Shown here piece by piece: positions 27,597 to 64,000 of a DNA stretch of 64,000 nt. Location of the stretch: the IMG/VR virus record IMGVR_UViG_3300030406_003049, positions 1 through 64,000 of that record. The stretch is one strand, 5' to 3'. How positions within the stretch are numbered: position 1 is the stretch's first letter; each line of letters starts with the position of its first letter. This stretch comes from a virus. Both the position numbers and the translations under genes were made by a program. A model generated the notes under the pieces. That model was not told the DNA's origin and made no database searches. It saw only the letters and a list, made by a program, of their open reading frames with translations.

Positions 27597-27790
27597 TGAT
27601 AATGCCCCCTTCTTTTCATTTCATCAACAAATGCCGCATACTCGCCATCTAACATATCTACATACCAAAGAAGAAAATCCTCAAAGGACATATCTTCTTT
27701 AACAGTTAATTGAAACTTACCAAATTCATAAGTCCATTTTTCTCTTATCTTATCTAAATTTTGTTTTCTTTTTCTTTCTTTCAAAACCAT
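27593..27790 (-). CDS. Hypothetical protein
   Basis: Coupled ORF. Confidence 0.55.
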   Translation of the reverse strand: MVLKERKRKQNLDKIREKWTYEFGKFQLTVKEDMSFEDFLLWYVDMLDGEYAAFVDEMKRRGHYQ

Positions 27791-28686
27791 TCCTCCAAAT
27801 TTGTTTGTATTTTACCCGATTTGATATTAGACAAATCCCAATTCATAGCCTTATAAATTGGTTCAGCCTTCTTTATTACTTGCTCGGCATAGTGTTGATA
27901 ATCGGGTTTATACTTATCAAAATCAATATACCGAGAACCTGCTACATATTCAACAGGCTTCACTTCTTTAGTTAATGGGTGTATAAATGCTTCACCGGAC
28001 TTTGATACTTTTAGGTATAAGTAAGAGTCGTCAAAAGTAATGTCGTTTTGTTTAGCATGTAATACACCCGCTATACCCGAACCTATTGTTGGTTTCTTAC
28101 CATCTAAGGTTTTGAAGTTCTTTACATCTTCACCGCACTTTTCACACCATCTTAGAGGTAAACATTCGTGTAATGTATATCTCTTATTACAACCCCACTT
28201 CTGTTCTGTAGCCTTACCGCACTTAACTTTTAACCTATTTTCTTTAAGTCTACTTCTCTTAATAATGTCCTGTAGTTCAACTTCTCCATTTAGAACTGAC
28301 ATGTATTTATTGTGTAAATACTTGTTAATTTCTAACATTGGCTTTTCATTTACCCACATAGTCAATACATCAGTTTGAACTTGTTTAGCAAGTTTAGTTT
28401 CACTAACTCTTTTAGCGGTAAAACCCGTCATAATAAACTCCGGCTCATCTAACCATTCTCCATCTTTCCAAGTTATCATACCTGCATTTCTATTCTTAGT
28501 TGTTCCAACACCTAATGCTGAATAGTATTTCTCAAACTCTAGCACTACGGGGTGTTGTTCTAATCCCATAACATTAGGGAAGTGTTCTCTAACACTAGAC
28601 TCTATTTCTTTAATAGCGTCTTGTGCTTTCTCTACAGAATCAATTTGAACATAAATTGAATCTGTATGCCCGTAAACTACCTTCAT
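27781..28686 (-). CDS. polB: Family B DNA polymerase, C-terminal subunit (split gene)
   Basis: Starts at motif C 'YGHTDSIYV'; 'LEFEK', 'KNRNAG', 'GFTAKR', thumb 'YAEQ'; own RBS and ATG. Confidence 0.9.
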   Translation of the reverse strand: MKVVYGHTDSIYVQIDSVEKAQDAIKEIESSVREHFPNVMGLEQHPVVLEFEKYYSALGVGTTKNRNAGMITWKDGEWLDEPEFIMTGFTAKRVSETKLAKQVQTDVLTMWVNEKPMLEINKYLHNKYMSVLNGEVELQDIIKRSRLKENRLKVKCGKATEQKWGCNKRYTLHECLPLRWCEKCGEDVKNFKTLDGKKPTIGSGIAGVLHAKQNDITFDDSYLYLKVSKSGEAFIHPLTKEVKPVEYVAGSRYIDFDKYKPDYQHYAEQVIKKAEPIYKAMNWDLSNIKSGKIQTNLEEWF

Positions 28687-30009: not shown

Positions 30010-31632
30010 TCAAACTTCCAACTCCTTCGCCTTGAATGCGGCTAATCTAATGGCCTCTCTAGCACTAGCAGTAATACTAGCGGCTAAATCTACATCAGCC
30101 CAACCAAATCCTTGAAACGCAAGAACACCATAGAAAGAACTCATTAGTCGCTTAACCGCCATTTGATTATTATACCACTTTTGATATTCTTCTTTGTTGT
30201 TTGCACCCTTCATTCTTTTCTTGTAATCGTTTCTTAACTCCCTTAGTTCAATTACTGCTCTAGGTAATACTCCTAATTCATCTGTGTTGTAGTATAGCAT
30301 TTGTGTTTGTTTGACTTCGCTAAAATCTCTAGGAGTTAGAATATTAACTCCAAAATCTGTGGGTTCTTTTGACTTAGTTTCCCAAGATATATTTCTAGCC
30401 ATCATCATACTAGGATATAGTTGAGCAAAGTCAAATGCCGCTACATTAAGATGTAAACCATTAGTATTCTCACTAAGCGGGTCATAAATCATAGCCCCTT
30501 GATATTCTTTTCTATCGGCACTTTTGATACCTGTTGGTGCTTTCCACCAAGCATTTCTCATAAAGTAAATAGAACCCATATGTGAAGCATAGAAGCAAGC
30601 CTTGAAAGGTGCTTTTAGTAATCTTTGTAATGATAATATTGCTTCACTACAATAGTTTGATTCATCTATTCTAACTAAGAGTTCTACATCTACTAAGGCA
30701 TAATGTAAGTATGCTTTTGTATCTTCTAGCCATGCTCTACGATAAAATTCGTTAGGGTCTTCAAACTTAGTCTCCATCACCTTTCCTTCATTAAATAATA
30801 TCTTAGAAACATAGTCAAGACTTAGCGAGGGTAGCGTTCCTCTTTGCGAATCATTCCATTGTCTTTCAAATGCTAAGTCTAAGTTAAGAGTTAGTCTTCC
30901 ACCAATAGGTTGTTCAATAGGTGAATAACCATCTTGTCTCTTAAAACTACAACCTTTCTTAAGTTGCTTAACTCCATCTATCTTATGATAAGGCGACATA
31001 ACTAAAGGATTCAAGCCTAAAGCACATGCCCTATCTAATAACTTAGGTAAGTCAAACTTAAGACCAAACCATGCAATCAACATATCGGGGTCTTTAGCAA
31101 TCATAGTTCCCATAAAGTGTTCTATCATTTCTTTTTCATTATCAAAACGATAATTGTCATTTCCTTCATAATCAGGAAACCATGCCCACTGATAATACAG
31201 TTCATCGTAATTATCATACACTACAATAGTAGTAATACAACCGTCATGTTCTCCGCCTTGCGCCCATTCCATATCCCAATACCACTTACGCATATTATAT
31301 TCGGGCATTTCATTAACTTCATCAACTGCATATCTAAATGTATAAGGCACATCAGCCTCATAAGTTTTAGTAAAGACTTGCCTAGCACCATTTATGTCAT
31401 ATGACTTTTCAACATATACTCTTTTTAGTGATTCGCCTTCTAAGTTTTTCCAATCCCCTTCTTCGTATTCAAATTTACCCTTAGTATATTTATTCAAAGA
31501 ATAAGTTGGTATTTCTTTTTCATCTGCTAAAACATAGAAGTATGGTCTAAACTCTACTTCTTCGCTTTTCTTTACTCCGTTTTCTCTCCAAGATTTGTAT
31601 ATTGTATTTCCATTTTTATTACTAATTATCAT
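30010..31632 (-). CDS. polB: Family B DNA polymerase, N-terminal subunit (exonuclease plus motifs A/B)
   Basis: ExoI 'WDME', ExoII 'KFDL', ExoIII 'YALVD', motif A 'DFAQLYPS', motif B 'KRLMSSFYG'; ends before motif C. Confidence 0.92.
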   Translation of the reverse strand: MIISNKNGNTIYKSWRENGVKKSEEVEFRPYFYVLADEKEIPTYSLNKYTKGKFEYEEGDWKNLEGESLKRVYVEKSYDINGARQVFTKTYEADVPYTFRYAVDEVNEMPEYNMRKWYWDMEWAQGGEHDGCITTIVVYDNYDELYYQWAWFPDYEGNDNYRFDNEKEMIEHFMGTMIAKDPDMLIAWFGLKFDLPKLLDRACALGLNPLVMSPYHKIDGVKQLKKGCSFKRQDGYSPIEQPIGGRLTLNLDLAFERQWNDSQRGTLPSLSLDYVSKILFNEGKVMETKFEDPNEFYRRAWLEDTKAYLHYALVDVELLVRIDESNYCSEAILSLQRLLKAPFKACFYASHMGSIYFMRNAWWKAPTGIKSADRKEYQGAMIYDPLSENTNGLHLNVAAFDFAQLYPSMMMARNISWETKSKEPTDFGVNILTPRDFSEVKQTQMLYYNTDELGVLPRAVIELRELRNDYKKRMKGANNKEEYQKWYNNQMAVKRLMSSFYGVLAFQGFGWADVDLAASITASAREAIRLAAFKAKELEV

Positions 31633-47173: not shown

Positions 47174-48025
47174 TTAATTTCTCCTTATTTCATTTATCTG
47201 TTTACCTCTCAATTGAGAGCATTGTTCATAACCAATCAAAGCCAACAGTTTCTTTGTGGTTAGTTTTATGTTAGAAGTGGCTACATTCGCCCTTTCTGCA
47301 ATCTCTTTCTGTTTTATTGGGTGCAAAAACATATTTGCGGCAATCCAACAAATGCTAGAATAGTAGACTGTTCCTTTAACACAATCAGTTTCTTGGGTTA
47401 AAGTTTCAAACACTTCTAAAACATCTTGACACTTTGAAGCATAATTCAAATCATCTGTAATCTTAGAAGTTATTTGTTTCAACATATAATTAGGGTCTGT
47501 CTTAACTTTGGTGTTGGTATTGTAGTATTTGTTTATTCTTTTAATTGCCCTGTTCAATGTCCTAGTATTACAAGAAAATTCCTGCCTTAATTGCTTTAAA
47601 GGAATAGGTGTCCTATTTTCTTTTAGAACATAATAAACTACCGCAGTTGCTTTTTCTTCAATTCCTAAAGTAGTTAGAACATTTTTTCTATACAAATCAG
47701 TATAGCATTCTTCAACTCTACTAGATAATGGGTGTCTAGGCATAAGTGTTGATAACAACATATTACACATTCTAAGCCCATTATCTAAATGAGTAGTGTT
47801 GCTTGCTATCCACTTGACACTTTTCTTATTTGAATCAACATGACTTCCTAATTTTTTCTTACCGCCATAATCCGGTGTGTGAACAAACTCTCCGCTTTTA
47901 TCAACGGCTCTAACTGTTTGTTCAAACAATTCTGTTATTGCTATCAGCCCACAATCTACACAAGATAGTTCGCCTAAATTATCATTCATTTCAAAATTAT
48001 TTCCTTCGCATTCAAGACACTTCAT
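47174..48025 (-). CDS. tfb: Transcription initiation factor B (TFB/TFIIB-like)
   Basis: N-terminal Zn ribbon 'CLEC...GELSCVDCGLI', two cyclin-like repeats, C-terminal HTH 'QKEIAERANV'. Confidence 0.85.
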   Translation of the reverse strand: MKCLECEGNNFEMNDNLGELSCVDCGLIAITELFEQTVRAVDKSGEFVHTPDYGGKKKLGSHVDSNKKSVKWIASNTTHLDNGLRMCNMLLSTLMPRHPLSSRVEECYTDLYRKNVLTTLGIEEKATAVVYYVLKENRTPIPLKQLRQEFSCNTRTLNRAIKRINKYYNTNTKVKTDPNYMLKQITSKITDDLNYASKCQDVLEVFETLTQETDCVKGTVYYSSICWIAANMFLHPIKQKEIAERANVATSNIKLTTKKLLALIGYEQCSQLRGKQINEIRRN

Positions 48026-54538: not shown

Positions 54539-55972
54539 TCAGTTTTTTGGGCGTGGCCCACAATAATATAGATTTCTCTTTGCTCTTGTTATAGCAACAT
54601 AACAAATGTTTCTTTCCTCTTGCATATTAGATGCTTTAGGGTGAGGCATTCTTTCAGTTGCTAGAATAAACACATTATCTGCTTCAAGACCTTTAGCCTT
54701 GTGAACAGTTGATAGTTGAATATCTCCTTTTGATTTACTGTTAAACAGTCTTTCAATTTCTGTGATTATTCCACCAACAAATTCAGCCTTTGATGCAAAT
54801 ATCTTAACACATTCATATTTGTCAGTTAGTGTGTTTGCTTGATTTTGCTTTTCAGCCTTAACCAACTTGTTGTATTCAGCAGTATAGTTAGTGTTAAGCA
54901 ATTCAAGGAAATCACTTGAGGTCATTCCTTTGTTCTTGGTAATTTTATTTACATAGTTTACCAAACCTTTGTGCATATCTCTACCTAGAATGTAGGCTGA
55001 TTTACCTTGAGTAATTAAATCATAAAATGCACTAACTAGTGGTGCATTATATCTACACAAAACCATATCTCCCTTTTGTGGGTTTAGATATGCGTTTACA
55101 TGAACATTACCAGTTTCAGCAGTTTCTAAACAATTGAAATCTTTGACATATCTGTTTGCTTCTGCAACTACTAACTTAGGACATCTCCATGTTAGAGTTA
55201 ATCCAAACTCTACAACAGTTTTACCCTTCGCTTCTAGTTGATTCTTGAAGATAGCAATACTTCCGCTATCTGCTCCTCTAAAGCCATAAATAGCCTGATT
55301 CTTGTCTCCAACAATAATACATCTACCGTTTTTCGTGCAAGCCAAAACTAGTTGTCTTTGCATTTCATTGAAGTCTTGTGCTTCATCAACAAATAGAATA
55401 TCAAATTGAGGTAGAGGCATGTCCATTACCAATGGTAGCCAAATCATATCATCAAAGTCTATCTCGTTTGTTATGAGTTTACATTCGTCAAGTATTTGAC
55501 ATACTGCACCAACTCCCATTACTTCTTCACGGTCATTAGCGAACTCAATATTGTATTCGTCAATCAACTTATAGATTTCTTTTTCATCGGTGCAATCAAT
55601 CATTGAACCCTTGACTAAACTAATTAGTTTGACAAGTGGTTGTGCTTGATAATCACGGCCAAAGATACCATCAATGATATTCTTTACTTTCCAGTTGTTT
55701 ACTCTAGTGTTGCCTACTGCATCTCTAACTGCTTTCATACCTAGTGCATGAAATGTCTTTGCTTCTACATGTTCGGGTAGTCTTTCAGCAAGTTCAGTTG
55801 CGATAGATTTGTTAAATGCTAAGAATCCCATTCTTGGGGCATTTGCTCTATTAGCACCTTCTACGATTGTGAAAGTCTTACCTGTTCCTGCACCGGCATT
55901 GACTATTACATCATTATCAGTATTCACTATTTCATTCCATATTTTTTCTTGTTCTTCTGTTCCTTTTATCAT
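54539..55972 (-). CDS. SF1 UvrD/Rep-like helicase
   Basis: 'AGAGTGKT', 'AFNK', 'TFHAL', 'VDEAQD', 'GDKNQAIYGFRGA', 'STVHKAKGLE', 'YVAITRA'. Confidence 0.95.
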   Translation of the reverse strand: MIKGTEEQEKIWNEIVNTDNDVIVNAGAGTGKTFTIVEGANRANAPRMGFLAFNKSIATELAERLPEHVEAKTFHALGMKAVRDAVGNTRVNNWKVKNIIDGIFGRDYQAQPLVKLISLVKGSMIDCTDEKEIYKLIDEYNIEFANDREEVMGVGAVCQILDECKLITNEIDFDDMIWLPLVMDMPLPQFDILFVDEAQDFNEMQRQLVLACTKNGRCIIVGDKNQAIYGFRGADSGSIAIFKNQLEAKGKTVVEFGLTLTWRCPKLVVAEANRYVKDFNCLETAETGNVHVNAYLNPQKGDMVLCRYNAPLVSAFYDLITQGKSAYILGRDMHKGLVNYVNKITKNKGMTSSDFLELLNTNYTAEYNKLVKAEKQNQANTLTDKYECVKIFASKAEFVGGIITEIERLFNSKSKGDIQLSTVHKAKGLEADNVFILATERMPHPKASNMQEERNICYVAITRAKRNLYYCGPRPKN

Positions 55973-55989
55973 TTTTATTCACCATTTTT

Positions 55990-56210
55990 ATTTCGGGTGG
56001 AGTGCGAGGTGGCCGACTAAATATAAGCATCACATGTTCCCCCCGAAACATGGTAAATTATTAGAGAGCGAGGTGATATAAAATTCTCTCTCACAATAAA
56101 CTTCATTGTTGCGCCTTGCTTTATTATCTAGCCGACCATTTGAAACACTTAACAGTAGATAGTCAAACTATCACCGTTAAATGTGAGGGGCGAAGTCGGA
56201 TTCCGACCTC
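55990..56210 (-). ncRNA. Candidate structured RNA or long structured leader
   Basis: Non-coding, relatively GC-rich; TATA at 56231-56238; several nested stems with G-U pairs on the minus strand. Confidence 0.5.
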
Positions 56211-56286
56211 ATCAAAGAGGGGGTGGATAGTATATAAAGGGGGGGCGAAACCTCCCGACCCTTGATTTTTAACGGAGATAGTAAAA

Positions 56287-56757
56287 TTACTCGTCTTCAA
56301 CGGGCGTTAGCCCTGCTACCGTTCCGTCCCACTTCCCATCTCGGAACTCTTTTTTGAGCCTCGTCATTAGTCGCTTTTTGTTCGCATTGGCGAACTCTTT
56401 GTTTGTCTTATAGAAGCCACCGCCTGATTTCTTATGTCTTGGCGTGATGAATCTAATCACAGGGTCATGCTCCATGTAGTCAAGCGAAGCCGAAAACATC
56501 TTCTTGCCTAATTGCTCTACCACTACCCTTACTTTAGCGGGAAGGTCGCTCTTGTTTCCTTTGTGAAAGGGTGTCCCTTCCTTGTCTTTCAGCAAAGCCT
56601 TCATTGACTTTACAACACCATCTCTTGCCTTTTCATCATTTTGCCCTACTTCAAGGTTCAACTTCAAGACTTGAATTAGTCCACTTGAAATGTCAGCCCC
56701 CGAATCTAGGTATTCTTCCACATCTAACTTAATGTGAGTCCATGTATTGTCGTCCAT
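56287..56757 (-). CDS. Cassette-family protein, member 1 (divergent)
   Basis: Shares 'LP..V', 'HxKSGGG.(Y/F)' and 'W(D/N)G' with 58649-59107 and 60121-60615. Confidence 0.75.
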   Translation of the reverse strand: MDDNTWTHIKLDVEEYLDSGADISSGLIQVLKLNLEVGQNDEKARDGVVKSMKALLKDKEGTPFHKGNKSDLPAKVRVVVEQLGKKMFSASLDYMEHDPVIRFITPRHKKSGGGFYKTNKEFANANKKRLMTRLKKEFRDGKWDGTVAGLTPVEDE

Positions 56758-56951
56758 TAATTCATCTACAGGTCATTGACATATAAAACAGGCTTTAATC
56801 ATTAAAATGAAAAAATAGGGGTGAGTATTGTTATCAAACTTTACATTACATTTTAAAATAAATCAATTAACACTATTCTCCTTAATTTAAGCACTAATGA
56901 AGTTTATGTGACTACAAACCTGCACCACAAAGTAAAGTGTGTTTGTATAGA

Positions 56952-57357
56952 CGACAAATTTTCCGACACGATAACGACACCCCTAAACGGGCAACTGCGC
57001 CTTAAACGACATTTGCGACATTTGCGACACCCCCCTAGAATATATTGGGGAGAATAACTATGAAGATTCTTAATAATAAATTAGAGGGGGAGAGGGGTTA
57101 AGATAGAAGGGGTGTCGTTATTGTCGTATTGTCGGTAATAATATATTATTATTAATAATATTAATAATAAATTAATTACTATCAAGAATCTTACTAGTAA
57201 ATATGCGACACTTTTACCGACACCCCCTGCCTCTATCCTGTCGCCTATCCGATTCTTCTATATTATATACTATACAATATGAATATTTCAATAAATATAG
57301 GTAATACATTATACATTCAATTGAAAGTGATACTATCAAAGTGTCGTATATCTGTCG
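56952..57357. repeat. CGACA/TGTCG iteron cluster around an AT-rich core (candidate origin)
   Basis: 8 CGACA and 6 TGTCG copies in about 400 nt of non-coding DNA; near-pure A/T tract at 57136-57181. Confidence 0.6.
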
Positions 57358-57451
57358 CTAACATGTCATACACAATTGAGAGCCTATGGATATAAATAGA
57401 CTTGGTTTACTTTGGAAACCCACAGACAAAATAAAATTTTTGAAAATGAGA

Positions 57452-57481
57452 GGCGGATTTGAGTTTTATTTCAAATCCGCC
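57452..57481. terminator. 11-bp hairpin at the end of the cassette array
   Basis: GGCGGATTTGA/TCAAATCCGCC. Confidence 0.55.
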
Positions 57482-57637
57482 CCTCTAGCAATATTCAACA
57501 GAACTATTGTTGAATTTAATCGTGCTTATCGTAGGTGTTCTTGTAGAAGTCGTCTGTTGTTCTACAGTGATAACATTCACTTACCTTATCACTTATTCGC
57601 TTACTACAAGTGTTGCATCTATTTTGCTTCCTAAACT

Positions 57638-58387
57638 TCATTGGTTTCTAGCCTCCCTTGTCATTTTTACAATGTCGGGTGTGCATTTGCTTTCATTGAG
57701 AGTAATTGCTTTGAAATTACAATCAATTTCAACATTATCAACATCATATCCGAATTGTTTTGTCTTCAAGACCCTTTCAACTACGCTTTGGACTTTACCA
57801 AGTATTTCAAGTGGGAAAGCCACCATGTATTCTTCAATTGTTTCCTTTCTTTGGACTGTTTCACAACTCCAAAATGTTTTGAAAATCAACTCCATACCAC
57901 CATAGTTATTTTCAAGTTCTATTCTAATTTTAACCCCATTATCCAAAACAATTCTATTATCTCTTTCAATTTCCTTAAAGTTAAATAGACTATTTTCTGT
58001 CGGTGGATAAGTATAGTATTGTGTTTCATCAAAAGCAGGAACTAAATAATCACCTTTTGGTTGAACCCAATCTTTCTTAGTGGTTTCACTTACTATTCTA
58101 TCAGTGCTTACATTTTCAAATTTATTTGACAAACCTTCAACTATTTCATTTGCAGTTGAAATGTATTGAACAGTAAAGATTAGTTCATCATCAATGTATA
58201 TACCATGTCTTGTTGATTTCTTAGTTATGGTATTATAACCGTATTCGGGAACTTCGCCCCAATAGGTTGTCATCATTGTCAAACCTTTCTTTTGTAGTTG
58301 ATGAGCCAACTTTGCTTCTTCTTTTTGATTGAGTCTTTCATCATGCTCATATCGTATTTTCATAGTTCTATTATATTCTATCGCCAT
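57638..58387 (-). CDS. Hypothetical protein (cassette 5)
   Basis: 249-aa ORF with GGAGG RBS and its own promoter. Confidence 0.75.
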   Translation of the reverse strand: MAIEYNRTMKIRYEHDERLNQKEEAKLAHQLQKKGLTMMTTYWGEVPEYGYNTITKKSTRHGIYIDDELIFTVQYISTANEIVEGLSNKFENVSTDRIVSETTKKDWVQPKGDYLVPAFDETQYYTYPPTENSLFNFKEIERDNRIVLDNGVKIRIELENNYGGMELIFKTFWSCETVQRKETIEEYMVAFPLEILGKVQSVVERVLKTKQFGYDVDNVEIDCNFKAITLNESKCTPDIVKMTREARNQ

Positions 58388-58422
58388 AGTTAATAACCTC
58401 CAATGATAATATGTTAGGTTAG

Positions 58423-58510
58423 TATATATCGTGGGTTCTCAAAGTAAACCATATGGTTGTTTCACTATTACTTTTGTTGTCGTAGACTAGTAGAAACAAC
58501 CTTAAAAAAA
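58423..58510 (-). repeat. Cassette junction A: T-tract, bulged hairpin, ACCATATGGT, TATA
   Basis: TATA 58423, palindrome 58448-58457, stem 58455-58463/58493-58501. Confidence 0.85.
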
Positions 58511-58648
58511 GGGCGAAGACACCCGCTAAGATTGTGTTTTTTCCTATCTCATAAGAAGTGCTTTTCCCTGCACTATATGAGTTTCCGTCTTAGCGGGTGC
58601 TTGCGTGAGTTTGGCGCAACAATGGGTTGTTTTGTGGCTCTAACGGGT

Positions 58649-59107
58649 TTATTCGGTAGCCTCCGTTATGGCTACGGGAAGTGAACCGTCCCAAGTTTTA
58701 TTGTTGTAGTGTTGTCGTAGTTTTCCGGCAGTCATGTTAGCCATCATTGTCGCATATTCGTCAGCGTCAGCGAATAGACCGCCACCGGACTTACCATGCT
58801 TGAAGATAACCGAACTAACCGAGCCGTGATTGTAAAAGTTAGTTGATGCTTCTACAATTTCTGCTTTGATAGCGTTGATTGATGCTTGCACATTCTCCGG
58901 TAGAGTAGAGCGTGAAGGTAGTAAGTCGTCAAGGCTCATAGCCTTAACCAATGCTCTAATACTAGCCCAAAATTGGTCTGCTGATTTTTCATCAGTAGCC
59001 TCAAGTCCGGCCTTGATTGTGTTCTCAAGTGCCGCATTCTTGATTTTCTGTGCTTTCATGTTTGCTTGTAATCCTGTCATTCTGCTTAATGTTCTTTCTA
59101 AATCCAT
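58649..59107 (-). CDS. Cassette-family protein, member 2
   Basis: 'QFWASIRAL', 'STLPENVQA', 'YNNKTWDG'. Confidence 0.8.
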   Translation of the reverse strand: MDLERTLSRMTGLQANMKAQKIKNAALENTIKAGLEATDEKSADQFWASIRALVKAMSLDDLLPSRSTLPENVQASINAIKAEIVEASTNFYNHGSVSSVIFKHGKSGGGLFADADEYATMMANMTAGKLRQHYNNKTWDGSLPVAITEATE

Positions 59108-59173
59108 ATTTTTTCATCTCCTGTGTTTTACCACTACTCCAACCCATTGAAGCAATAATAAGTGGGTTCATAG

Positions 59174-59268
59174 TATATATTGGGGTTCAACAAAAGCAAC
59201 ACCATATGGTTGCATCAATAGTTCTTTTTGAATTAAGCATAGCGTTATTAGATGCAACCTTAAAAAAA
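59174..59268 (-). repeat. Cassette junction B
   Basis: TATA 59174, palindrome 59201-59210, stem 59208-59216/59251-59259. Confidence 0.85.
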
Positions 59269-59271
59269 GGG

Positions 59272-59322
59272 AAAAACTCCCCAAATCCTAAGAAATGGGG
59301 AGTTTTTTTGACCGAGTGTGAT
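59272..59322 (-). terminator. Hairpin terminator preceded by ATCACACTCGGT
   Basis: AAAAACTCCC/GGGAGTTTTT stem; same layout at 60779-60828. Confidence 0.6.
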
Positions 59323-59324
59323 GG

Positions 59325-59696
59325 TTAGAAGTAGTCCATGTATGAGGCAATATACTTTGGCTTTCCGTCCCACGCTTCACCGTTTACATACCATTGAAAA
59401 TCCTTTTGATGGATATTAACTCCATTAAATCCGTTCAATCTTTCTTTTGTGGTGTTAGTTGGCCAACCTGCCGAAGTAATCCACAATTTCTTGAAATAAT
59501 ATCTATCACCAAAAGAACTAGGAACTGTATGTTTTGGATATACACATTCGTTGTATGCTATAACATTCCCATGTAATAACAATTCAATTTTTTCTGGTTT
59601 TTCAGTTGGCCCACATACTCTAACTTGAGTATTACCTTTTTTGAATTTCTTTCCCTTTTCAAATGCTCTTAATGCTTCATAAGTTATCTTTCGCAT
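59325..59696 (-). CDS. Conserved phage hypothetical protein (leaderless, cassette 3)
   Basis: 'LHGNVIA...AGWPTNTTKERLNG...QKDFQW'; ATG 21 nt from the TATA box. Confidence 0.75.
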   Translation of the reverse strand: MRKITYEALRAFEKGKKFKKGNTQVRVCGPTEKPEKIELLLHGNVIAYNECVYPKHTVPSSFGDRYYFKKLWITSAGWPTNTTKERLNGFNGVNIHQKDFQWYVNGEAWDGKPKYIASYMDYF

Positions 59697-59716
59697 ATTA
59701 CTATAATGTTAATTAG

Positions 59717-59806
59717 TATATAGTCGGGTTTCTCAAAAAGATACACCATATGGTTGCTTAACTAATCTTTGGTGGCTTTAGCCTAGTAAAAGCAACCTTA
59801 AAAAAA
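59717..59806 (-). repeat. Cassette junction C
   Basis: TATA 59717, palindrome 59745-59754, stem 59752-59760/59789-59797. Confidence 0.85.
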
Positions 59807-60120
59807 TGAGAAACTCCGGCTACTCGTTCAAATCCAGTGAATGCGTGATGCTTACAGAAAATAGACGAGGGAATACGAGTATAACTAGTATTCTCGCAGT
59901 ATCAATCTATATGTATCTCCGACCGACTTACATTTACAACTTGACTTTCGCCTTCGTTTCTCAATGGTGTTATGGCCACTAATAACCATAGGAATAGGAC
60001 TAGGGAGCATAACGATTTTAACTCTTAGTTTTCTATTTTTATTTCAATTTCAAAAATGAGTATCGCTATGCTCCCGTTGAATGGGACTGGCGCAACATGG
60101 GGATATTGCATTAGTTAGGC

Positions 60121-60615
60121 TTATTCGCTATCCTCCTTAACAGGTAGCGTAAGACCAGTGATGTTATCATCGGTCAATTCACCGTTCCAAAGTTTATTCT
60201 TGTATGAGTCAGTTAGAAGTCTTCTAACTCTCTTACCAAAGTAGTCTGCTAGTTCTTGAATATCAGCGAACTTTTGACCCGATGTATTACGCATAGGCAT
60301 AATAGTATCAATCATCAATTCCGGCTCACCAATACCCACAAAAACATTTACTACCCGATTCACTACAGAATCCACAACGGCTTGAACTTGTGTAGGTAAT
60401 GATGGTTGAGTGCCTTTGCGGATAGGGGAGTTTGGGAGTGTTTGACACAAAGACCTAATACTCGCCCAAAATTGCTCATATTGTTTTTCAGTTTGACCTT
60501 CAACTTGTGCTGATGTTATCATGCCTCTTAGAACTATGTCCAAAGAACCAGCATCGTTCACATCTAGCCAAGTTATAATGCTATTTGTTTTTTCTACTAA
60601 TTTACTATATTCCAT
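60121..60615 (-). CDS. Cassette-family protein, member 3
   Basis: 'QFWASIRSL', 'PSLPTQVQA', 'YKNKLWNG'; GGAGATG RBS. Confidence 0.8.
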   Translation of the reverse strand: MEYSKLVEKTNSIITWLDVNDAGSLDIVLRGMITSAQVEGQTEKQYEQFWASIRSLCQTLPNSPIRKGTQPSLPTQVQAVVDSVVNRVVNVFVGIGEPELMIDTIMPMRNTSGQKFADIQELADYFGKRVRRLLTDSYKNKLWNGELTDDNITGLTLPVKEDSE

Positions 60616-60685
60616 ATTTTTCATCTCCTTGATTGTATGCTAACCATACAATATCCCCATGAAGCAATAATAAGTGGGTCTATTC

Positions 60686-60774
60686 TATATGAAACGGGTA
60701 TTTCAAAGTAAACCATATGGTTGTGTCAGTCATTCTTTTTGATTGCTTCGCTACTAGACACAACCCTAAAAAAA
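60686..60774 (-). repeat. Cassette junction D
   Basis: TATA 60686, palindrome 60712-60721, stem 60719-60727/60757-60765. Confidence 0.85.
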
Positions 60775-60778
60775 GGGA

Positions 60779-60828
60779 AAAAACCGACTACCCCTAAAGA
60801 TAGCCGGTTTTTTTTAACCGAGTGTGAT
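60779..60828 (-). terminator. Hairpin terminator preceded by ATCACACTCGGT
   Basis: AAAAACCGACTA/TAGCCGGTTTTT stem; homologous to 59272-59322. Confidence 0.6.
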
Positions 60829-60831
60829 TAT

Positions 60832-61020
60832 TTATCCTAAACATTCATAATCATTCATAATACACGCCCTAAGTTTTTCCCCCTCAAGGTGTGTTAGTCG
60901 CTTTTGGTGTAAATATTGCTCAAACTTTTCAAGAGCATATCTTTCTAATTGTTCACGGCTCATTGATTTGATTAATCTTATTGTATATGGGCTTACATAG
61001 TGTAGTTTCAACATATTCAT
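60832..61020 (-). CDS. Hypothetical protein (cassette 1, gene 2)
   Basis: GAGGAGG RBS; ATGA coupling. Confidence 0.6.
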   Translation of the reverse strand: MNMLKLHYVSPYTIRLIKSMSREQLERYALEKFEQYLHQKRLTHLEGEKLRACIMNDYECLG

Positions 61021-61286
61021 TCCTCCTCATCTGCTTCATTCCAAGCCTCATAAAATCGTCCTAAAAACGCCTCAAAAATATGACCCTGCATTATTTCTCC
61101 AACTTGAAGACCTGTATGTTGGGGTTCAATTTGAATGTTTAACGGTGTTCCTATTACATCGTGATATGTTGTATATATTTCACCGAAATATACAGGGAGT
61201 AAACTCTCTACATATTCATGTATTCCGTCTTCATCATCATATTGCTTTTTGTATTCTTTTACTTCTTCTGCCCAATCTATTGACAT
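61017..61286 (-). CDS. Acidic hypothetical protein (leaderless; cassette 1, gene 1)
   Basis: ATG 61286 is 21 nt from TATA 61307; MSIDWAEEV...EADEEE. Confidence 0.7.
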   Translation of the reverse strand: MSIDWAEEVKEYKKQYDDEDGIHEYVESLLPVYFGEIYTTYHDVIGTPLNIQIEPQHTGLQVGEIMQGHIFEAFLGRFYEAWNEADEEE

Positions 61287-61306
61287 ATTATTATAATATG
61301 AATTGG

Positions 61307-61375
61307 TATATAATCGGGTTATACAAAGCAACACCATATGGTAATACAATCTAGTCTGTTATACAACCATATGGC
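61307..61375 (-). promoter_or_regulatory. Array head: TATA plus two tandem ACCATATGG palindromes
   Basis: Palindromes at 61333-61342 and 61366-61375; no bulged hairpin; at the strand-divergence point. Confidence 0.65.
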
Positions 61376-61521
61376 TTTGTTCCAAAATTTTTTTCTTTGT
61401 TAATTTAGCCTAATTAACCATTAATCGTTAAATTAGGCTCATTAACTACTGATATTAACAAGTTAGGACATAAAACTACAACATTTATTACCTCTATAAT
61501 ATTACGATATGTCAAGGAGGT

Positions 61522-61758
61522 TTGTTCATTAGTGCTGAATTACGAAATAGATTAGATTCCGTAGTTCAAACAATAAGGCAAGTATTACAATATACAAAAG
61601 AGCAAAAAGCGTTTACTGATAAACAAAATAAGGAATTACGCTATGCTCAAGTAGAGTTAAGAAAACTGATTAAGTATATACAGGATATTAAATCAACCAC
61701 TGATAAAGATGAGAGATTTAAGGACTATGGTAATACTAAGCAAACTAAACTATTGTAA
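61522..61758 (+). CDS. Hypothetical protein
   Basis: AAGGAGG RBS; TTG start. Confidence 0.55.
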   Translation: MFISAELRNRLDSVVQTIRQVLQYTKEQKAFTDKQNKELRYAQVELRKLIKYIQDIKSTTDKDERFKDYGNTKQTKLL

Positions 61759-61870
61759 GTTAAAGTTTTATTGTGGAAATACATAATATAAGAAAAAAAA
61801 ATTTTCGCTAGTGCTACAAAAATTCCGCCACATTTTTTGAAAAAGTCGTTTAAAATAAAAGGTGAATAAT

Positions 61871-63100
61871 ATGACATGGGAAAATATACTCAAAGACAAA
61901 CCACTACTAGATATGAGAAGAATAAATAATCTATATTCCCCATATATTGCATATCATGTAGCAGGGTTGATAGAATCCGAACTTTATGGAAAACTTAGAA
62001 CTATTCCGTATAATGAAAAAATAAGCGACGCTTTAGAATATTGCATTAGTTTTGATTATAACGAATTTGCAGAAGAGATATTTAGTGGAAGCAAGGGCGA
62101 CTATGGTATAGCAGATAAAGAAGCCGAAGGGTTGTATAATGATGGTAAAAAATTTGGTGGTAAATTTACTCTTAAAGTAAGATGGGAAAAACCCATGTAT
62201 CAGTTTGAAGGAGTAGAAGAAGTTGGTAAAAAATTAGACGGTGTTGAATTAGATATAGAATATGAAGGTTCATGGGCTAAAAATTATCAAGGTGTAAAAC
62301 TAGGAAAGGGGCAGAATGTTAAAAATTTCAAAATCAATGCTTCTTCAATTAAAAAACAACTAGACGAGGCACTAGAAGGTGCAACCATTAAACACGACGG
62401 AGAAGAATATGGAGTAATGTTAAGATTTTTAGACAAGCCTGACTTTAAAATTAAGGCTCTTCAAGACTTAATTGGGCGAGCATATATGGACTATGGCGGC
62501 ACTATTGGTGACGACCCTGCAAGAAGTTATCCAAATTATAATAAAAGACCAACTAGTAAAACTAAGAAAGAGTCTTGGCGTAGCGTTTTGCGAACTAGTG
62601 CTAACTTTGGCGGTAAGGGTAGAAGGAGCGACAAGAAAGTAGATGCTTATATGAAGGCTCTTGATATTGACAATGACCCCGAATCCATAGCAGATATGCA
62701 ATCCGGTAAAAAACTCATACAAAATGATGTAGAAATTGCCGAAGGAATAAGTGTAGATGATTTCTACAAAATAATGGATAAAGCGAATGTAAGTCAAGAA
62801 AAGTTAGAAGAAGAAGAAGAAGAGGCAGATGCGGAAGGTAGAGATGAACTGATTTTTTACTTGCAGGGTGAAATGTCATCACTTGGTAAATTGGATTTAA
62901 ATATAACTGTTCCTAATCTTGAGGAGCGAAACACAAAGCGTAGCAGATATGGTTATATTGATGGAACTTATACCCCACTTACTTTTAACGAATATATGGA
63001 ATTAGAAAACATAAAGGCTAAACAACATATATTTGAGATTGAAAAAGTAAAAGAAGGTTTTATGAAAATTTTTGAAGAAGTAAAAACATTAGGTGAATAA
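61871..63100 (+). CDS. MTW-motif protein 1
   Basis: Starts MTWENILK; internal SWRSVLR. Confidence 0.8.
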   Translation: MTWENILKDKPLLDMRRINNLYSPYIAYHVAGLIESELYGKLRTIPYNEKISDALEYCISFDYNEFAEEIFSGSKGDYGIADKEAEGLYNDGKKFGGKFTLKVRWEKPMYQFEGVEEVGKKLDGVELDIEYEGSWAKNYQGVKLGKGQNVKNFKINASSIKKQLDEALEGATIKHDGEEYGVMLRFLDKPDFKIKALQDLIGRAYMDYGGTIGDDPARSYPNYNKRPTSKTKKESWRSVLRTSANFGGKGRRSDKKVDAYMKALDIDNDPESIADMQSGKKLIQNDVEIAEGISVDDFYKIMDKANVSQEKLEEEEEEADAEGRDELIFYLQGEMSSLGKLDLNITVPNLEERNTKRSRYGYIDGTYTPLTFNEYMELENIKAKQHIFEIEKVKEGFMKIFEEVKTLGE

Positions 63101-63101
63101 T

Positions 63102-63377
63102 ATGACATGGAAAGATATGTTGAAGAAAGATGATGGAAGAAAGGAATTGAGACGAGAGATACTTCATCATAGAAGGAAGAAAGAAAGCAAGAAGCGTCAA
63201 ATGGATAGGAAGAACCAAGATAGTAAAAAACCAAAAAGAAAAGTGAATTATGCTAATCCAACAAGACTTGAGGATTTTCCTGAACATATAAAGGGAATTA
63301 GCCTACCTAGTAGTTTTGACCCCGATAAAGATAGTGTAGAAGATTATCTTAAAGACCCTAAAAGATTTGAAAGGTGA
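63102..63377 (+). CDS. MTW-motif protein 2 (basic)
   Basis: Starts MTWKDMLK. Confidence 0.75.
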   Translation: MTWKDMLKKDDGRKELRREILHHRRKKESKKRQMDRKNQDSKKPKRKVNYANPTRLEDFPEHIKGISLPSSFDPDKDSVEDYLKDPKRFER

Positions 63378-63382
63378 ATAAT

Positions 63383-63634
63383 ATGACATGGAAAGATGAG
63401 ATAAAGAAAAGAGCATATCGTTATGATGGTGTTTTTTTAGTTAAGTTAAGAGAGGCAATAGATGATTTGGCTTCCGATTTAGAAGATATTGTTAGTGAAA
63501 AAGATATTAAGGAAATGGCTGAAAAATACAAGCAAAATTTTAGCCGTTATGAAATAGTCATTATGGCTTTAGAAGATGAAGCAAGAAAAATACAAGACCA
63601 ATTAACCGAAGATGCTGAAACGGCAAAATACTAA
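63383..63634 (+). CDS. MTW-motif protein 3 (acidic)
   Basis: Starts MTWKDEIK. Confidence 0.75.
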   Translation: MTWKDEIKKRAYRYDGVFLVKLREAIDDLASDLEDIVSEKDIKEMAEKYKQNFSRYEIVIMALEDEARKIQDQLTEDAETAKY

Positions 63635-63644
63635 GGTGAATAAT

Positions 63645-64000
63645 ATGACATGGAAAAACGCTATTCGCAAGGCAAGAGTATATGATTTTACATATACTAC
63701 TGAACTTGAGAGGCGTAAGCATGGTAGATTGCATTCTATTACTGGTGGAAAGGGTGTCTATGAAACTGATTATGAAAAAGTCATAATTGAATGGAGTTTG
63801 ACTTTTGAGAATAGCGAAGATTCAGTATATATCCAAGAGCCGAATATTGACAAAATTACTGTAGTGGGTGTTGATGCTTCTTTTGATGAGGGCTTTGATG
63901 CGGCTAATATGGAATGGGATATAGAAAATAAAGATGTTGTAGTAGATGATGTTCAAGCAGATATATATTTAAGCACTAAGGAATTACCTATGACTTTGAT
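63645..64000 (+). CDS. MTW-motif protein 4 (partial, runs off the window)
   Basis: Starts MTWKNAIR; open to the window end. Confidence 0.75.
   Translation, partial: MTWKNAIRKARVYDFTYTTELERRKHGRLHSITGGKGVYETDYEKVIIEWSLTFENSEDSVYIQEPNIDKITVVGVDASFDEGFDAANMEWDIENKDVVVDDVQADIYLSTKELPMTL

Follow-up and report, generated by a model that had tools for sequence, protein, structure and literature searches.

End-to-end helices with covarying arms enclose two early genes of a marine, magrovirus-like archaeal virus

The stretch of DNA analysed here (the window) comprises the first 64 kb of IMG/VR virus record IMGVR_UViG_3300030406_003049, a single contig of 94,947 bp that is rated complete and linear and that, judged by its gene content, is a complete 95-kb magrovirus-like virus of marine archaea. 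Between positions 58400 and 61400 lie five minus-strand cassettes with a single promoter layout common to all, and in two of these early cassettes (gene A, 58649-59107, and gene B, 60121-60615) the 5' leader of the mRNA can pair with the 3' trailer across the whole open reading frame (ORF). The question raised by this locus is what a helix closed around a coding sequence might do. An initial annotation of the sequence had proposed that both helices, which are followed by an encoded G-CCA, imitate a tRNA acceptor stem.

The coordinates of both leader-trailer pairings in that annotation all proved exact when the sequence was re-checked. Helix A joins minus-strand positions 59153-59140 with 58629-58616. 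Its outer pairs (G59153 and C59152 with G58617 and C58616) are followed by U59151 and U59150 opposite U58619 and U58618, by a main stretch of 10 bp (CAAUGGGUUG, 59149-59140, with CAACCCAUUG, 58629-58620) and, past an internal loop, by 5 bp of inner helix (GUGGU, 59134-59130, with GCCAC, 58638-58634). Helix B joins minus-strand positions 60665-60640 with 60120-60092; its outer pairs (G60665 and C60664 with G60093 and C60092) adjoin a U.U tandem, and its main stretch (CAUGGGGAUAUUG, 60661-60649, with CAAUAUCCCCAUG, 60108-60096) continues inward to approximately 60640/60120, for a total of ~23 bp with one bulge. Each helix encloses its ORF. The parts of the two cassettes are:

58649-59107, minus strand: gene A, 152 amino acids, all-helical according to a structure model
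59130-59153, minus strand: 5' arm A (G59153, the predicted +1; C59152; U.U; CAAUGGGUUG; inner GUGGU at 59134-59130)
59105-59121, minus strand: Shine-Dalgarno sequence (GGAGAUGA, 59121-59114) and start codon (59107-59105) of gene A, unpaired in the closed loop
58616-58638, minus strand: 3' arm A (GCCAC at 58638-58634; CAACCCAUUG at 58629-58620; UU; GC at 58617-58616)
58612-58615, minus strand: tail A, G-CCA (G58615; CCA at 58614-58612), a genome-specific variant of a conserved C-rich tail
58505-58599, minus strand: hairpin in the 3' untranslated region (UTR) of cassette A (58599-58588 with 58532-58521) and a run of seven T (58511-58505), likely the terminator
60121-60615, minus strand: gene B, 164 amino acids, with ATG at 60615 and Shine-Dalgarno sequence GGAGAUGA at 60628-60621; a paralogue of A with 30% identity
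60640-60665, minus strand: 5' arm B (G60665, the predicted +1; C60664; UU; CAUGGGGAUAUUG; extension UAUGGUUAG to 60640)
60092-60120, minus strand: 3' arm B, directly after the stop codon (CUAACUAAUG; CAAUAUCCCCAUG at 60108-60096; UU; GC at 60093-60092)
60088-60091, minus strand: tail B, G-CCA (G60091; CCA at 60090-60088)
59800-60087, minus strand: 3' UTR of cassette B (hairpin of 60075-60062 with 60016-60003; an element at 59999-59920; further structure; a run of seven T at 59806-59800)

Both long-range helices are contained in single-sequence minimum free energy (MFE) folds of the entire transcripts of 654 and 871 nucleotides. The leader/trailer duplexes have energies of -29.4 (A) and -37.4 (B) kcal/mol, compared with -17.2 +/- 3.0 and -16.1 +/- 3.2 when the trailers are shuffled, and the observed value was reached in 0 of 2000 shuffles in either case. 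Swapping leader and trailer between the cassettes (A with B, and B with A) weakens the duplexes to -17, the level of the shuffles. The sequence TGTTGCGCCA is present in exactly four copies in the 95-kb genome, of which two are the helix sites and two are within unrelated coding sequence.

An examination of homologous flanks for covariation, which the initial annotation had suggested, was made on 109 related loci that were gathered for this purpose; a hidden Markov model located 211 genes of the family, 147 of them with unique flanks (110 loci). The pairing is kept among them with compensatory changes. Most leadered copies have a leader/trailer helix of ~10-25 bp, the sequence of which changes by lineage around a GGG/CCC core, as in the lineage-specific stems CCGGGGUGGA/UCCACCCCGG, CUAAGGGGGAC/GUCCCCCUUAG and GGCUCAAAGGGAUUGAGUCGGUA/UACCGAUUCAAUCCCUUUAAGCC. 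The median duplex energy of the 147 unique homologues is -32.5 kcal/mol for cognate flanks versus -21.5 kcal/mol for non-cognate flanks; stems shared among orthologues inflate the latter, which is the null value. A family ORF is tightly enclosed by exact inverted repeats of 11 nucleotides or more in 69 cases, versus 2 in a reversed-sequence control. When 34 lineage representatives were aligned on the nearly universal core (GGG on the 5' arm, CCC on the 3' arm), the paired fraction was 0.74, versus 0.44 for shuffled partners (z 12.7) and 0.34-0.40 for slid partners, and 4-6 canonical pair types occur at each of the covarying positions (-3 to -1 and +3 to +7). From whole-cassette alignments alone (21 A-type and 20 B-type orthologues), RNAalifold predicts both helices with almost no broken pairs; the compensatory pairs include GC:12/UA:9 in the A type, and AU:8/GC:6/GU:6 and CG:9/UG:7/UA:4 in the B type. 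RNase III substrates have ~20 bp or more of double-stranded RNA; the B-type helices reach 22-25 bp, and the genome of the virus itself has no match to RNase III. Family members that are near-leaderless (e.g. 56287-56757) have no helix, and other long-range inverted repeats in these loci are mostly the palindromic promoter box, the few remaining ones forming no class. The pairing of leader with trailer across each ORF is borne out by the MFE folds, the shuffles and the covariation of homologues, and on this comparative sequence evidence the helices are real and under selection. What covariation establishes is the helix; its function we infer from other features, as follows.

Mismatches between the arms, read on the coding strand, are G.T rather than A.C in a ratio of 19 to 5 in ungapped arms and 21 to 5 in anchored columns. 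Because of this bias, because the arms are tied to landmarks of the transcript and because the arms of paralogues differ, the helix is taken to act in the sense RNA; the difference between paralogues also means that the arms are not terminal repeats of the transposase type. The 3' arm begins a median of 0 nucleotides past the stop codon (interquartile range 0-2), and the 5' arm ends a median of 23 nucleotides ahead of the ATG, with a GGAG-type Shine-Dalgarno-like motif in the gap in 30 of the 34 representatives. Both the MFE folds and the consensus folds leave the Shine-Dalgarno sequence and the AUG free. At the other end, pairing stops at the predicted +1: among 52 distinct flank pairs, the energy upstream of that position is -1.5 for cognate flanks versus -1.2 for non-cognate and -1.1 for shuffled flanks, so that the 12 nucleotides upstream of +1 and the 16 nucleotides beyond the closing pair do no better than either control. 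Pairing upstream of +1 was seen in a few lineages (e.g. L032) and is not general.

The predicted +1 follows from the promoter layout of the early region, which consists of a CCATATGG palindrome, CTTTG, AACCC resembling a B recognition element (BRE), TATATA, exactly 20 nucleotides, and then the first transcribed base. In two cassettes this base is the A of the ATG (59696, 61286); one further cassette has a 14-nucleotide leader that is barely more than a Shine-Dalgarno sequence; and in the two helix-bearing cassettes it is predicted to be the G of GCUUC (59153, 60665), with a spacing from TATATA to G equal to the spacing ahead of the ATGs at 59696 and 61286. The promoters of the helix-bearing cassettes are:

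59174-59209, minus strand: promoter A (CCATATGG at 59209-59202; CTTTTG; BRE-like AACCCC at 59187-59182; TATATA at 59179-59174; 20-nucleotide spacer)
60686-60720, minus strand: promoter B (CCATATGG at 60720-60713; BRE-like ACCC; ATATA at 60690-60686; 20-nucleotide spacer)

Four marine metatranscriptome runs from three studies were also consulted, in the form of assembled contigs, which cannot show true ends, strand or abundance and may be derived from DNA. The contigs cover 58594-59153 and 60138-60658, i.e. both ORFs and the 5' UTR of cassette A. One contig of 100% identity (X1 record 2) ends exactly at the predicted +1, 59153, which is only a weak hint because contigs cannot prove ends and the libraries may hold DNA. 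Two contigs, from two samples of one study, stop at 58594/58595, which is 17-18 nucleotides past the CCA and short of the T-run. No contig covers the neighbouring cassettes or promoters and none contains a joint, neither of which is evidence of absence. The initial annotation had taken the first G of each helix-bearing mRNA for +1, and transcription is indeed likely to start at G59153 and G60665, given the BRE-like box and TATA geometry, the end of the helix in 52 flank pairs and the one RNA contig end at 59153. The 3' end that it had expected at 58612 fared less well, since contigs pass the CCA and extend to 58594/58595; this read-through is weak evidence against an obligatory 3' end at that position.

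The G-CCA that follows each helix was examined in relatives of the virus. Only the nearest relatives have GCCA as the tail. It is replaced by ACCU or CACA/CACU in orthologues of 55-84% protein identity, and the tails of more distant relatives are CCCA, CCCU, UCCC or ACC. Most leadered copies of the ORF in relatives keep the pairing, but GCCA is lost outside the nearest of them. Tail positions +1 to +3 are C in 56-59% of lineages versus a background of 18%, and a C-rich tail just past the helix is the sole conserved part of the G-CCA. The U.U tandem is variable, its second position being U.U, U-A, U.G or U.C. The outer flanks of the cassettes, including the tail variant and a change of TTGC to TCGC, are identical in A and B of one genome and differ between genomes, which suggests either gene conversion (concerted evolution) between the cassettes or a shared sequence-specific reader.

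Taken together, the structure and its geometry probably represent an end-to-end RNA clamp on the two early leadered mRNAs of this magrovirus-like virus, serving mRNA stability and/or ribosome recycling, a reading that we hold on balance and not with certainty. The first 14-26 nucleotides of each mRNA would pair with the 14-29 nucleotides that start at or just past the stop codon, and the coding region would become a closed loop, in which the only single-stranded 5' part would be a segment of ~23 nucleotides with the Shine-Dalgarno sequence and the AUG; past the helix would come, in order, the short C-rich tail, the structured 3' UTR and the T-run terminator. The 5'-triphosphate end would be buried in the helix, a roadblock would stand behind the stop codon, and the coding part would be protected from both 5'-end-dependent and 3'-exonucleolytic decay. 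A terminating ribosome would be brought within ~10 nucleotides (across the helix junction) of the free Shine-Dalgarno sequence of its own mRNA, which would favour re-initiation. Such a clamp would be dynamic, since the helix would have its inner part melted by every ribosome that terminates.

Several points weigh against the clamp. Its function is inferred from structure and geometry, in a virus whose host is uncultured, and stability alone cannot explain end-to-end pairing, because two local hairpins, one per end, would give as much protection. Neither the fixed orientation of the core (GGG is on the 5' arm in 110 of 118 stems) nor the conserved C-rich tail is accounted for by a clamp; the two features hint at a sequence-specific reader, and the tail variant common to both cassettes of a genome suggests either a common recognition factor or gene conversion. 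It is conceivable, but in our view unlikely, that the helix, the GGG/CCC core and the genome-specific C-rich tail constitute a recognition module for a dedicated reader, which might be a host or viral protein or a nuclease of the CPSF-73, RNase Z or RNase P type. The reader would cut or mark the RNA beside the helix, or allow its ends to be joined, and the product would be a defined early mRNA, possibly circular or with protected ends, split from a co-transcribed non-coding RNA (ncRNA). If true, this would be a new kind of archaeal mRNA maturation signal.

Other explanations are open to similar scrutiny. Helix and C-rich tail could be a processing stem, i.e. an endonuclease site at which a double-stranded-RNA-specific enzyme, or an enzyme of the beta-CASP, RNase Z or RNase P type cutting beside the helix, would free the mRNA from its 3' UTR or from a downstream ncRNA and so set the 3' end of the mRNA. 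Leader-trailer helices are used in this way for processing of archaeal rRNA precursors; the helix here is long (up to ~25 bp) and is followed by the conserved tail; the 3' UTRs are long and modular, with an element nearly invariant among relatives in cassette B; and the contigs of two samples end at 58594/58595, before the T-run. Those contig ends come from a single study, however, and are not read ends, contigs span both the helix and the CCA, none of 122 stems has a bulge-helix-bulge motif, even when the permitted sizes of bulges and helices are relaxed, and the whole virus genome has no match to RNase III, RtcB or splicing endonuclease. Processing is accordingly a doubtful explanation. A circular mRNA, for which the stable helix would juxtapose the ends for a host RNA ligase in the manner of archaeal circular rRNA intermediates and C/D box small RNAs, is highly improbable: archaea do circularise several classes of RNA, but no back-joined contigs were seen (contigs being a weak test), the bulge-helix-bulge motif is missing from the stems, a 5' triphosphate is expected, the predicted transcript extends past the 3' arm, and the virus has no RtcB-type ligase, the sole match to the RNA_ligase family in its genome being the DNA ligase gene, below cut-off. 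We consider it quite unlikely that the mRNA is a fold-back switch like that of hok, in which the closed mRNA would be stable and poorly translated until 3' trimming or ribosome traffic opened it, thereby timing early expression. The layout is that of the tac/fbi interaction, in which the 5' end of the mRNA pairs with the 3' UTR with support from covariation (PMC9841398), and in the B type the 5' arm has an inner half able to form a local hairpin instead, apparently covarying by eye, that resembles a metastable co-transcriptional fold. On the other hand, neither the MFE nor the consensus folds tie up the Shine-Dalgarno sequence and AUG, the predicted primary transcript continues beyond the 3' arm, the product is modelled as a soluble helical protein of 150-170 amino acids and not a small membrane toxin, and no antisense partner was identified, although no search for antisense RNA was made.

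The proposal with which the analysis began, mimicry of a tRNA acceptor stem or a tmRNA, in which the encoded CCA would serve RNase Z, RNase P, CCA-adding enzyme or aminoacylation, has very little probability left. Both RNAs of this genome do read GC-UU-C...G-UU-GC-G-CCA, and relatives often have an N-CC-N tail. These relatives, however, replace the GCCA and vary the U.U tandem; there is no T-arm between the stop codon and the 3' arm; and the helix is continuous over ~10-25 bp, unlike the 7-bp acceptor stem that is stacked on a T-arm. ARAGORN finds 0 tRNA or tmRNA genes in the window, and Rfam gives no match to tRNA, tmRNA or tRNA-like structures at E <= 1 in positions 55800-62000. A tmRNA-like layout is further contradicted by the enclosed ORF, which, in contrast to the tag frame of a tmRNA, comes with start and stop signals of its own (Shine-Dalgarno sequence, ATG and stop codon) and encodes a conserved protein family. 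Moreover, the virus genome has no match to the nucleotidyltransferase family NTP_transf_2, and contigs pass the CCA. As far as sequence comparison goes, the homologues already largely refute the mimic; what stands of the initial annotation is the covarying helix around each ORF and the likely +1. Least probable of all, to the point of being barely credible, are inverted repeats acting at the level of DNA in an invertible or mobile gene cassette. The genes are multi-copy and their outer flanks are homogenised within a genome, but the arms of paralogues differ and yet remain complementary, mismatches are strand-biased toward G.U (19:5, 21:5), the arms are tied to the transcription start and the stop codon, and none of the 110 loci has a copy in inverted orientation.

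The clamp may be compared with several known systems. Metazoan histone mRNAs end in a stem-loop followed by ACCCA, where they are cut by CPSF-73, a nuclease with homologues in archaea; the helix here is likewise followed within a few nucleotides by a C-rich tail that often ends in CA, a likeness that is a lead only, given that the histone element is a local 6-bp hairpin and this helix is long-range, that many relatives have CCCU or UCCC without CA, and that cleavage is hypothetical. In archaeal and bacterial rRNA operons, the flanks of a long functional RNA pair into an enclosing processing stem. The present helix resembles such stems in that flanking sequences form a long helix around an RNA, but rRNA stems carry bulge-helix-bulge or RNase III sites and are cleaved, whereas here bulge-helix-bulge motifs are absent (0 of 122) and the enclosed RNA is a translated ORF. 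RNA viruses also pair terminal or UTR sequences over long distances, as panhandles or cyclisation elements and as the 3' translation enhancers by which plant viruses couple the 3' end to translation initiation at the 5' end. All of these belong to eukaryotic viruses with RNA genomes, whereas the present helix is in an ordinary Shine-Dalgarno-dependent mRNA of an archaeal double-stranded DNA virus. The likeness to tRNA-like structures and tmRNA, a helix closed by G-C and C-G and followed by G-CCA, is confined to this genome, and differs in the missing T-arm and D-analogue, the missing model match, the unconserved CCA and the helix length of ~10-25 bp. The hok mRNA of the hok/Sok system of plasmid R1 has a similar topology, its 5' end being paired with its own 3' UTR across the ORF by the long-distance tac/fbi interaction, with stabilisation of the closed molecule and covariation among homologues (PMC9841398). 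In that bacterial system the Shine-Dalgarno sequence is hidden in the closed form, which requires 3' trimming, and an antisense RNA and a small toxin take part, whereas here the Shine-Dalgarno sequence is free, the 3' arm abuts the stop codon, the product is a helical protein of 150-170 amino acids and the host is archaeal. Thus the element differs from hok, rRNA stems and RNA-virus pairing in host domain, in its free Shine-Dalgarno sequence and in its stop-abutting arm.

The element, an mRNA structure, covaries strongly and is kept across more than 100 environmental virus loci, in a fixed geometry relative to +1 and the stop region and with the Shine-Dalgarno sequence free. Control of mRNA stability and translation is little known in archaea and almost not at all in uncultured Marine Group II and their abundant viruses, and a concrete, portable element is now available for archaeal models, in which protection by end pairing, 'closed-loop' translation and a reader of the C-rich tail can be sought. 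The encoded CCA, a tempting false lead, is removed.

The gene content of the virus was examined for its likely affiliation. Family B DNA polymerase is encoded in two genes (30010-31632 and 27781-28686), and the genome also encodes an RFC-like clamp loader, an ATP-dependent DNA ligase, GroEL, a helicase and one protein that combines a TFIIB-type zinc ribbon with a helix-turn-helix (HTH) domain. Magroviruses, which have been assigned to uncultured Marine Group II archaea, have genomes of 65-100 kb, an archaeal-type replisome (PolB, RFC, ligase) and a chaperonin, and split PolB with GroEL has been described for magrovirus groups B, B1 and C (PMC5434244). By gene content, without phylogeny, the present virus agrees with these in genome size, PolB/RFC/ligase, chaperonin and split PolB, and since it is magrovirus-like, its TATA boxes, leaderless ATGs and T-run terminators fit archaeal transcription. 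Affiliation with crAss-like phages was considered and dropped: the early transcripts of phi14:2 have no shared motif, and the gene content here is archaeal-type. A DNA search of a phage genome collection with positions 58400-61500 gave no match. In the protein with the zinc ribbon (47174-48025, minus strand), the ribbon is N-terminal and scores 24 bits, where Pfam sets its cut-off at 29; an HTH_11 domain is also present. This protein may be a TFB-like factor of the virus, with the conserved AACCC box ahead of the TATA boxes as its target.

Genes A and B have a third paralogue in the window (56287-56757), which seems near-leaderless and has flanks without a helix; the three are mutually 27-30% identical. 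Their family, which is unannotated, comprises marine viral proteins (119 clusters at 90% identity, 129 representatives at 50%), and searches of PHROGs and Pfam with the three paralogues gave no family. The family products are soluble proteins of 150-170 amino acids, with a predicted structure that is a helical bundle of ~150 amino acids (pLDDT, the predicted local distance difference test, 83). Foldseek searches of the PDB with this model returned generic matches only (best E 0.32), as did the VIA comparison (Z <= 8.5 over 57 residues), and the matches in BFVD are unnamed viral proteins only. The predicted fold points to no function and offers no clue to why this family in particular bears the helix.

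Further features of the early region were noted. A T-run and then a covarying inverted repeat stand ahead of each early promoter (58456-58513, 59209-59271, 59753-59804 and 60720-60777, minus strand); the repeat has the form AAGGTTGnnnn, ~30 nucleotides, nnnnCAACC, runs into the CCATATGG palindrome, and has the arms GTTTC/GAAAC, GCATC/GATGC, GCTT/AAGC and GTGTC/GACAC. The first early gene (61017-61286, minus strand) is leaderless and encodes an acidic protein of 89 amino acids that weakly matches ocr-like anti-restriction proteins in PHROGs (E 0.009). In the B type, the inner half of the 5' arm (60629-60649, minus strand) has an alternative partner just downstream, with which it can form a local hairpin that, judged by eye, pairs as TTGTATG/CATACAA, TGTGTT/AACACA and TTGTGC/GCACAA in three sub-lineages and not at all in a fourth; this hairpin may be a co-transcriptional alternative fold. 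In the 3' UTR of cassette B, an element of ~55-80 nucleotides (59920-59999, minus strand; ATTCCwATGGyTATTAGTGGCCATAACACyATTGAGAAACrAAGGCGAAAGTC) is almost invariant in 17 relatives, although the adjoining proteins are only 55-97% identical. It has no match in Rfam, an RNA-library contig of depth 134 contains it and then diverges; a viral ncRNA and a protein-binding site are both conceivable identities for it. In a related 92-kb virus, two promoter-driven units without ORFs (~350-450 nucleotides; L001, 2880-3700) are located between the two family genes and are candidate early ncRNAs.

Two observations concern neighbouring parts of the window. An AT-rich non-coding stretch of 400 bp (56950-57355) contains 14 copies of TGTCG/CGACA, versus 0.33 per 500 nucleotides genome-wide, and is a candidate replication origin or iteron field. 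Four successive genes at 61862-64000 (plus strand) begin with the identical sequence GTGAATAATATGACATGGAA, giving MTWK/E N-termini to proteins that are otherwise unrelated.

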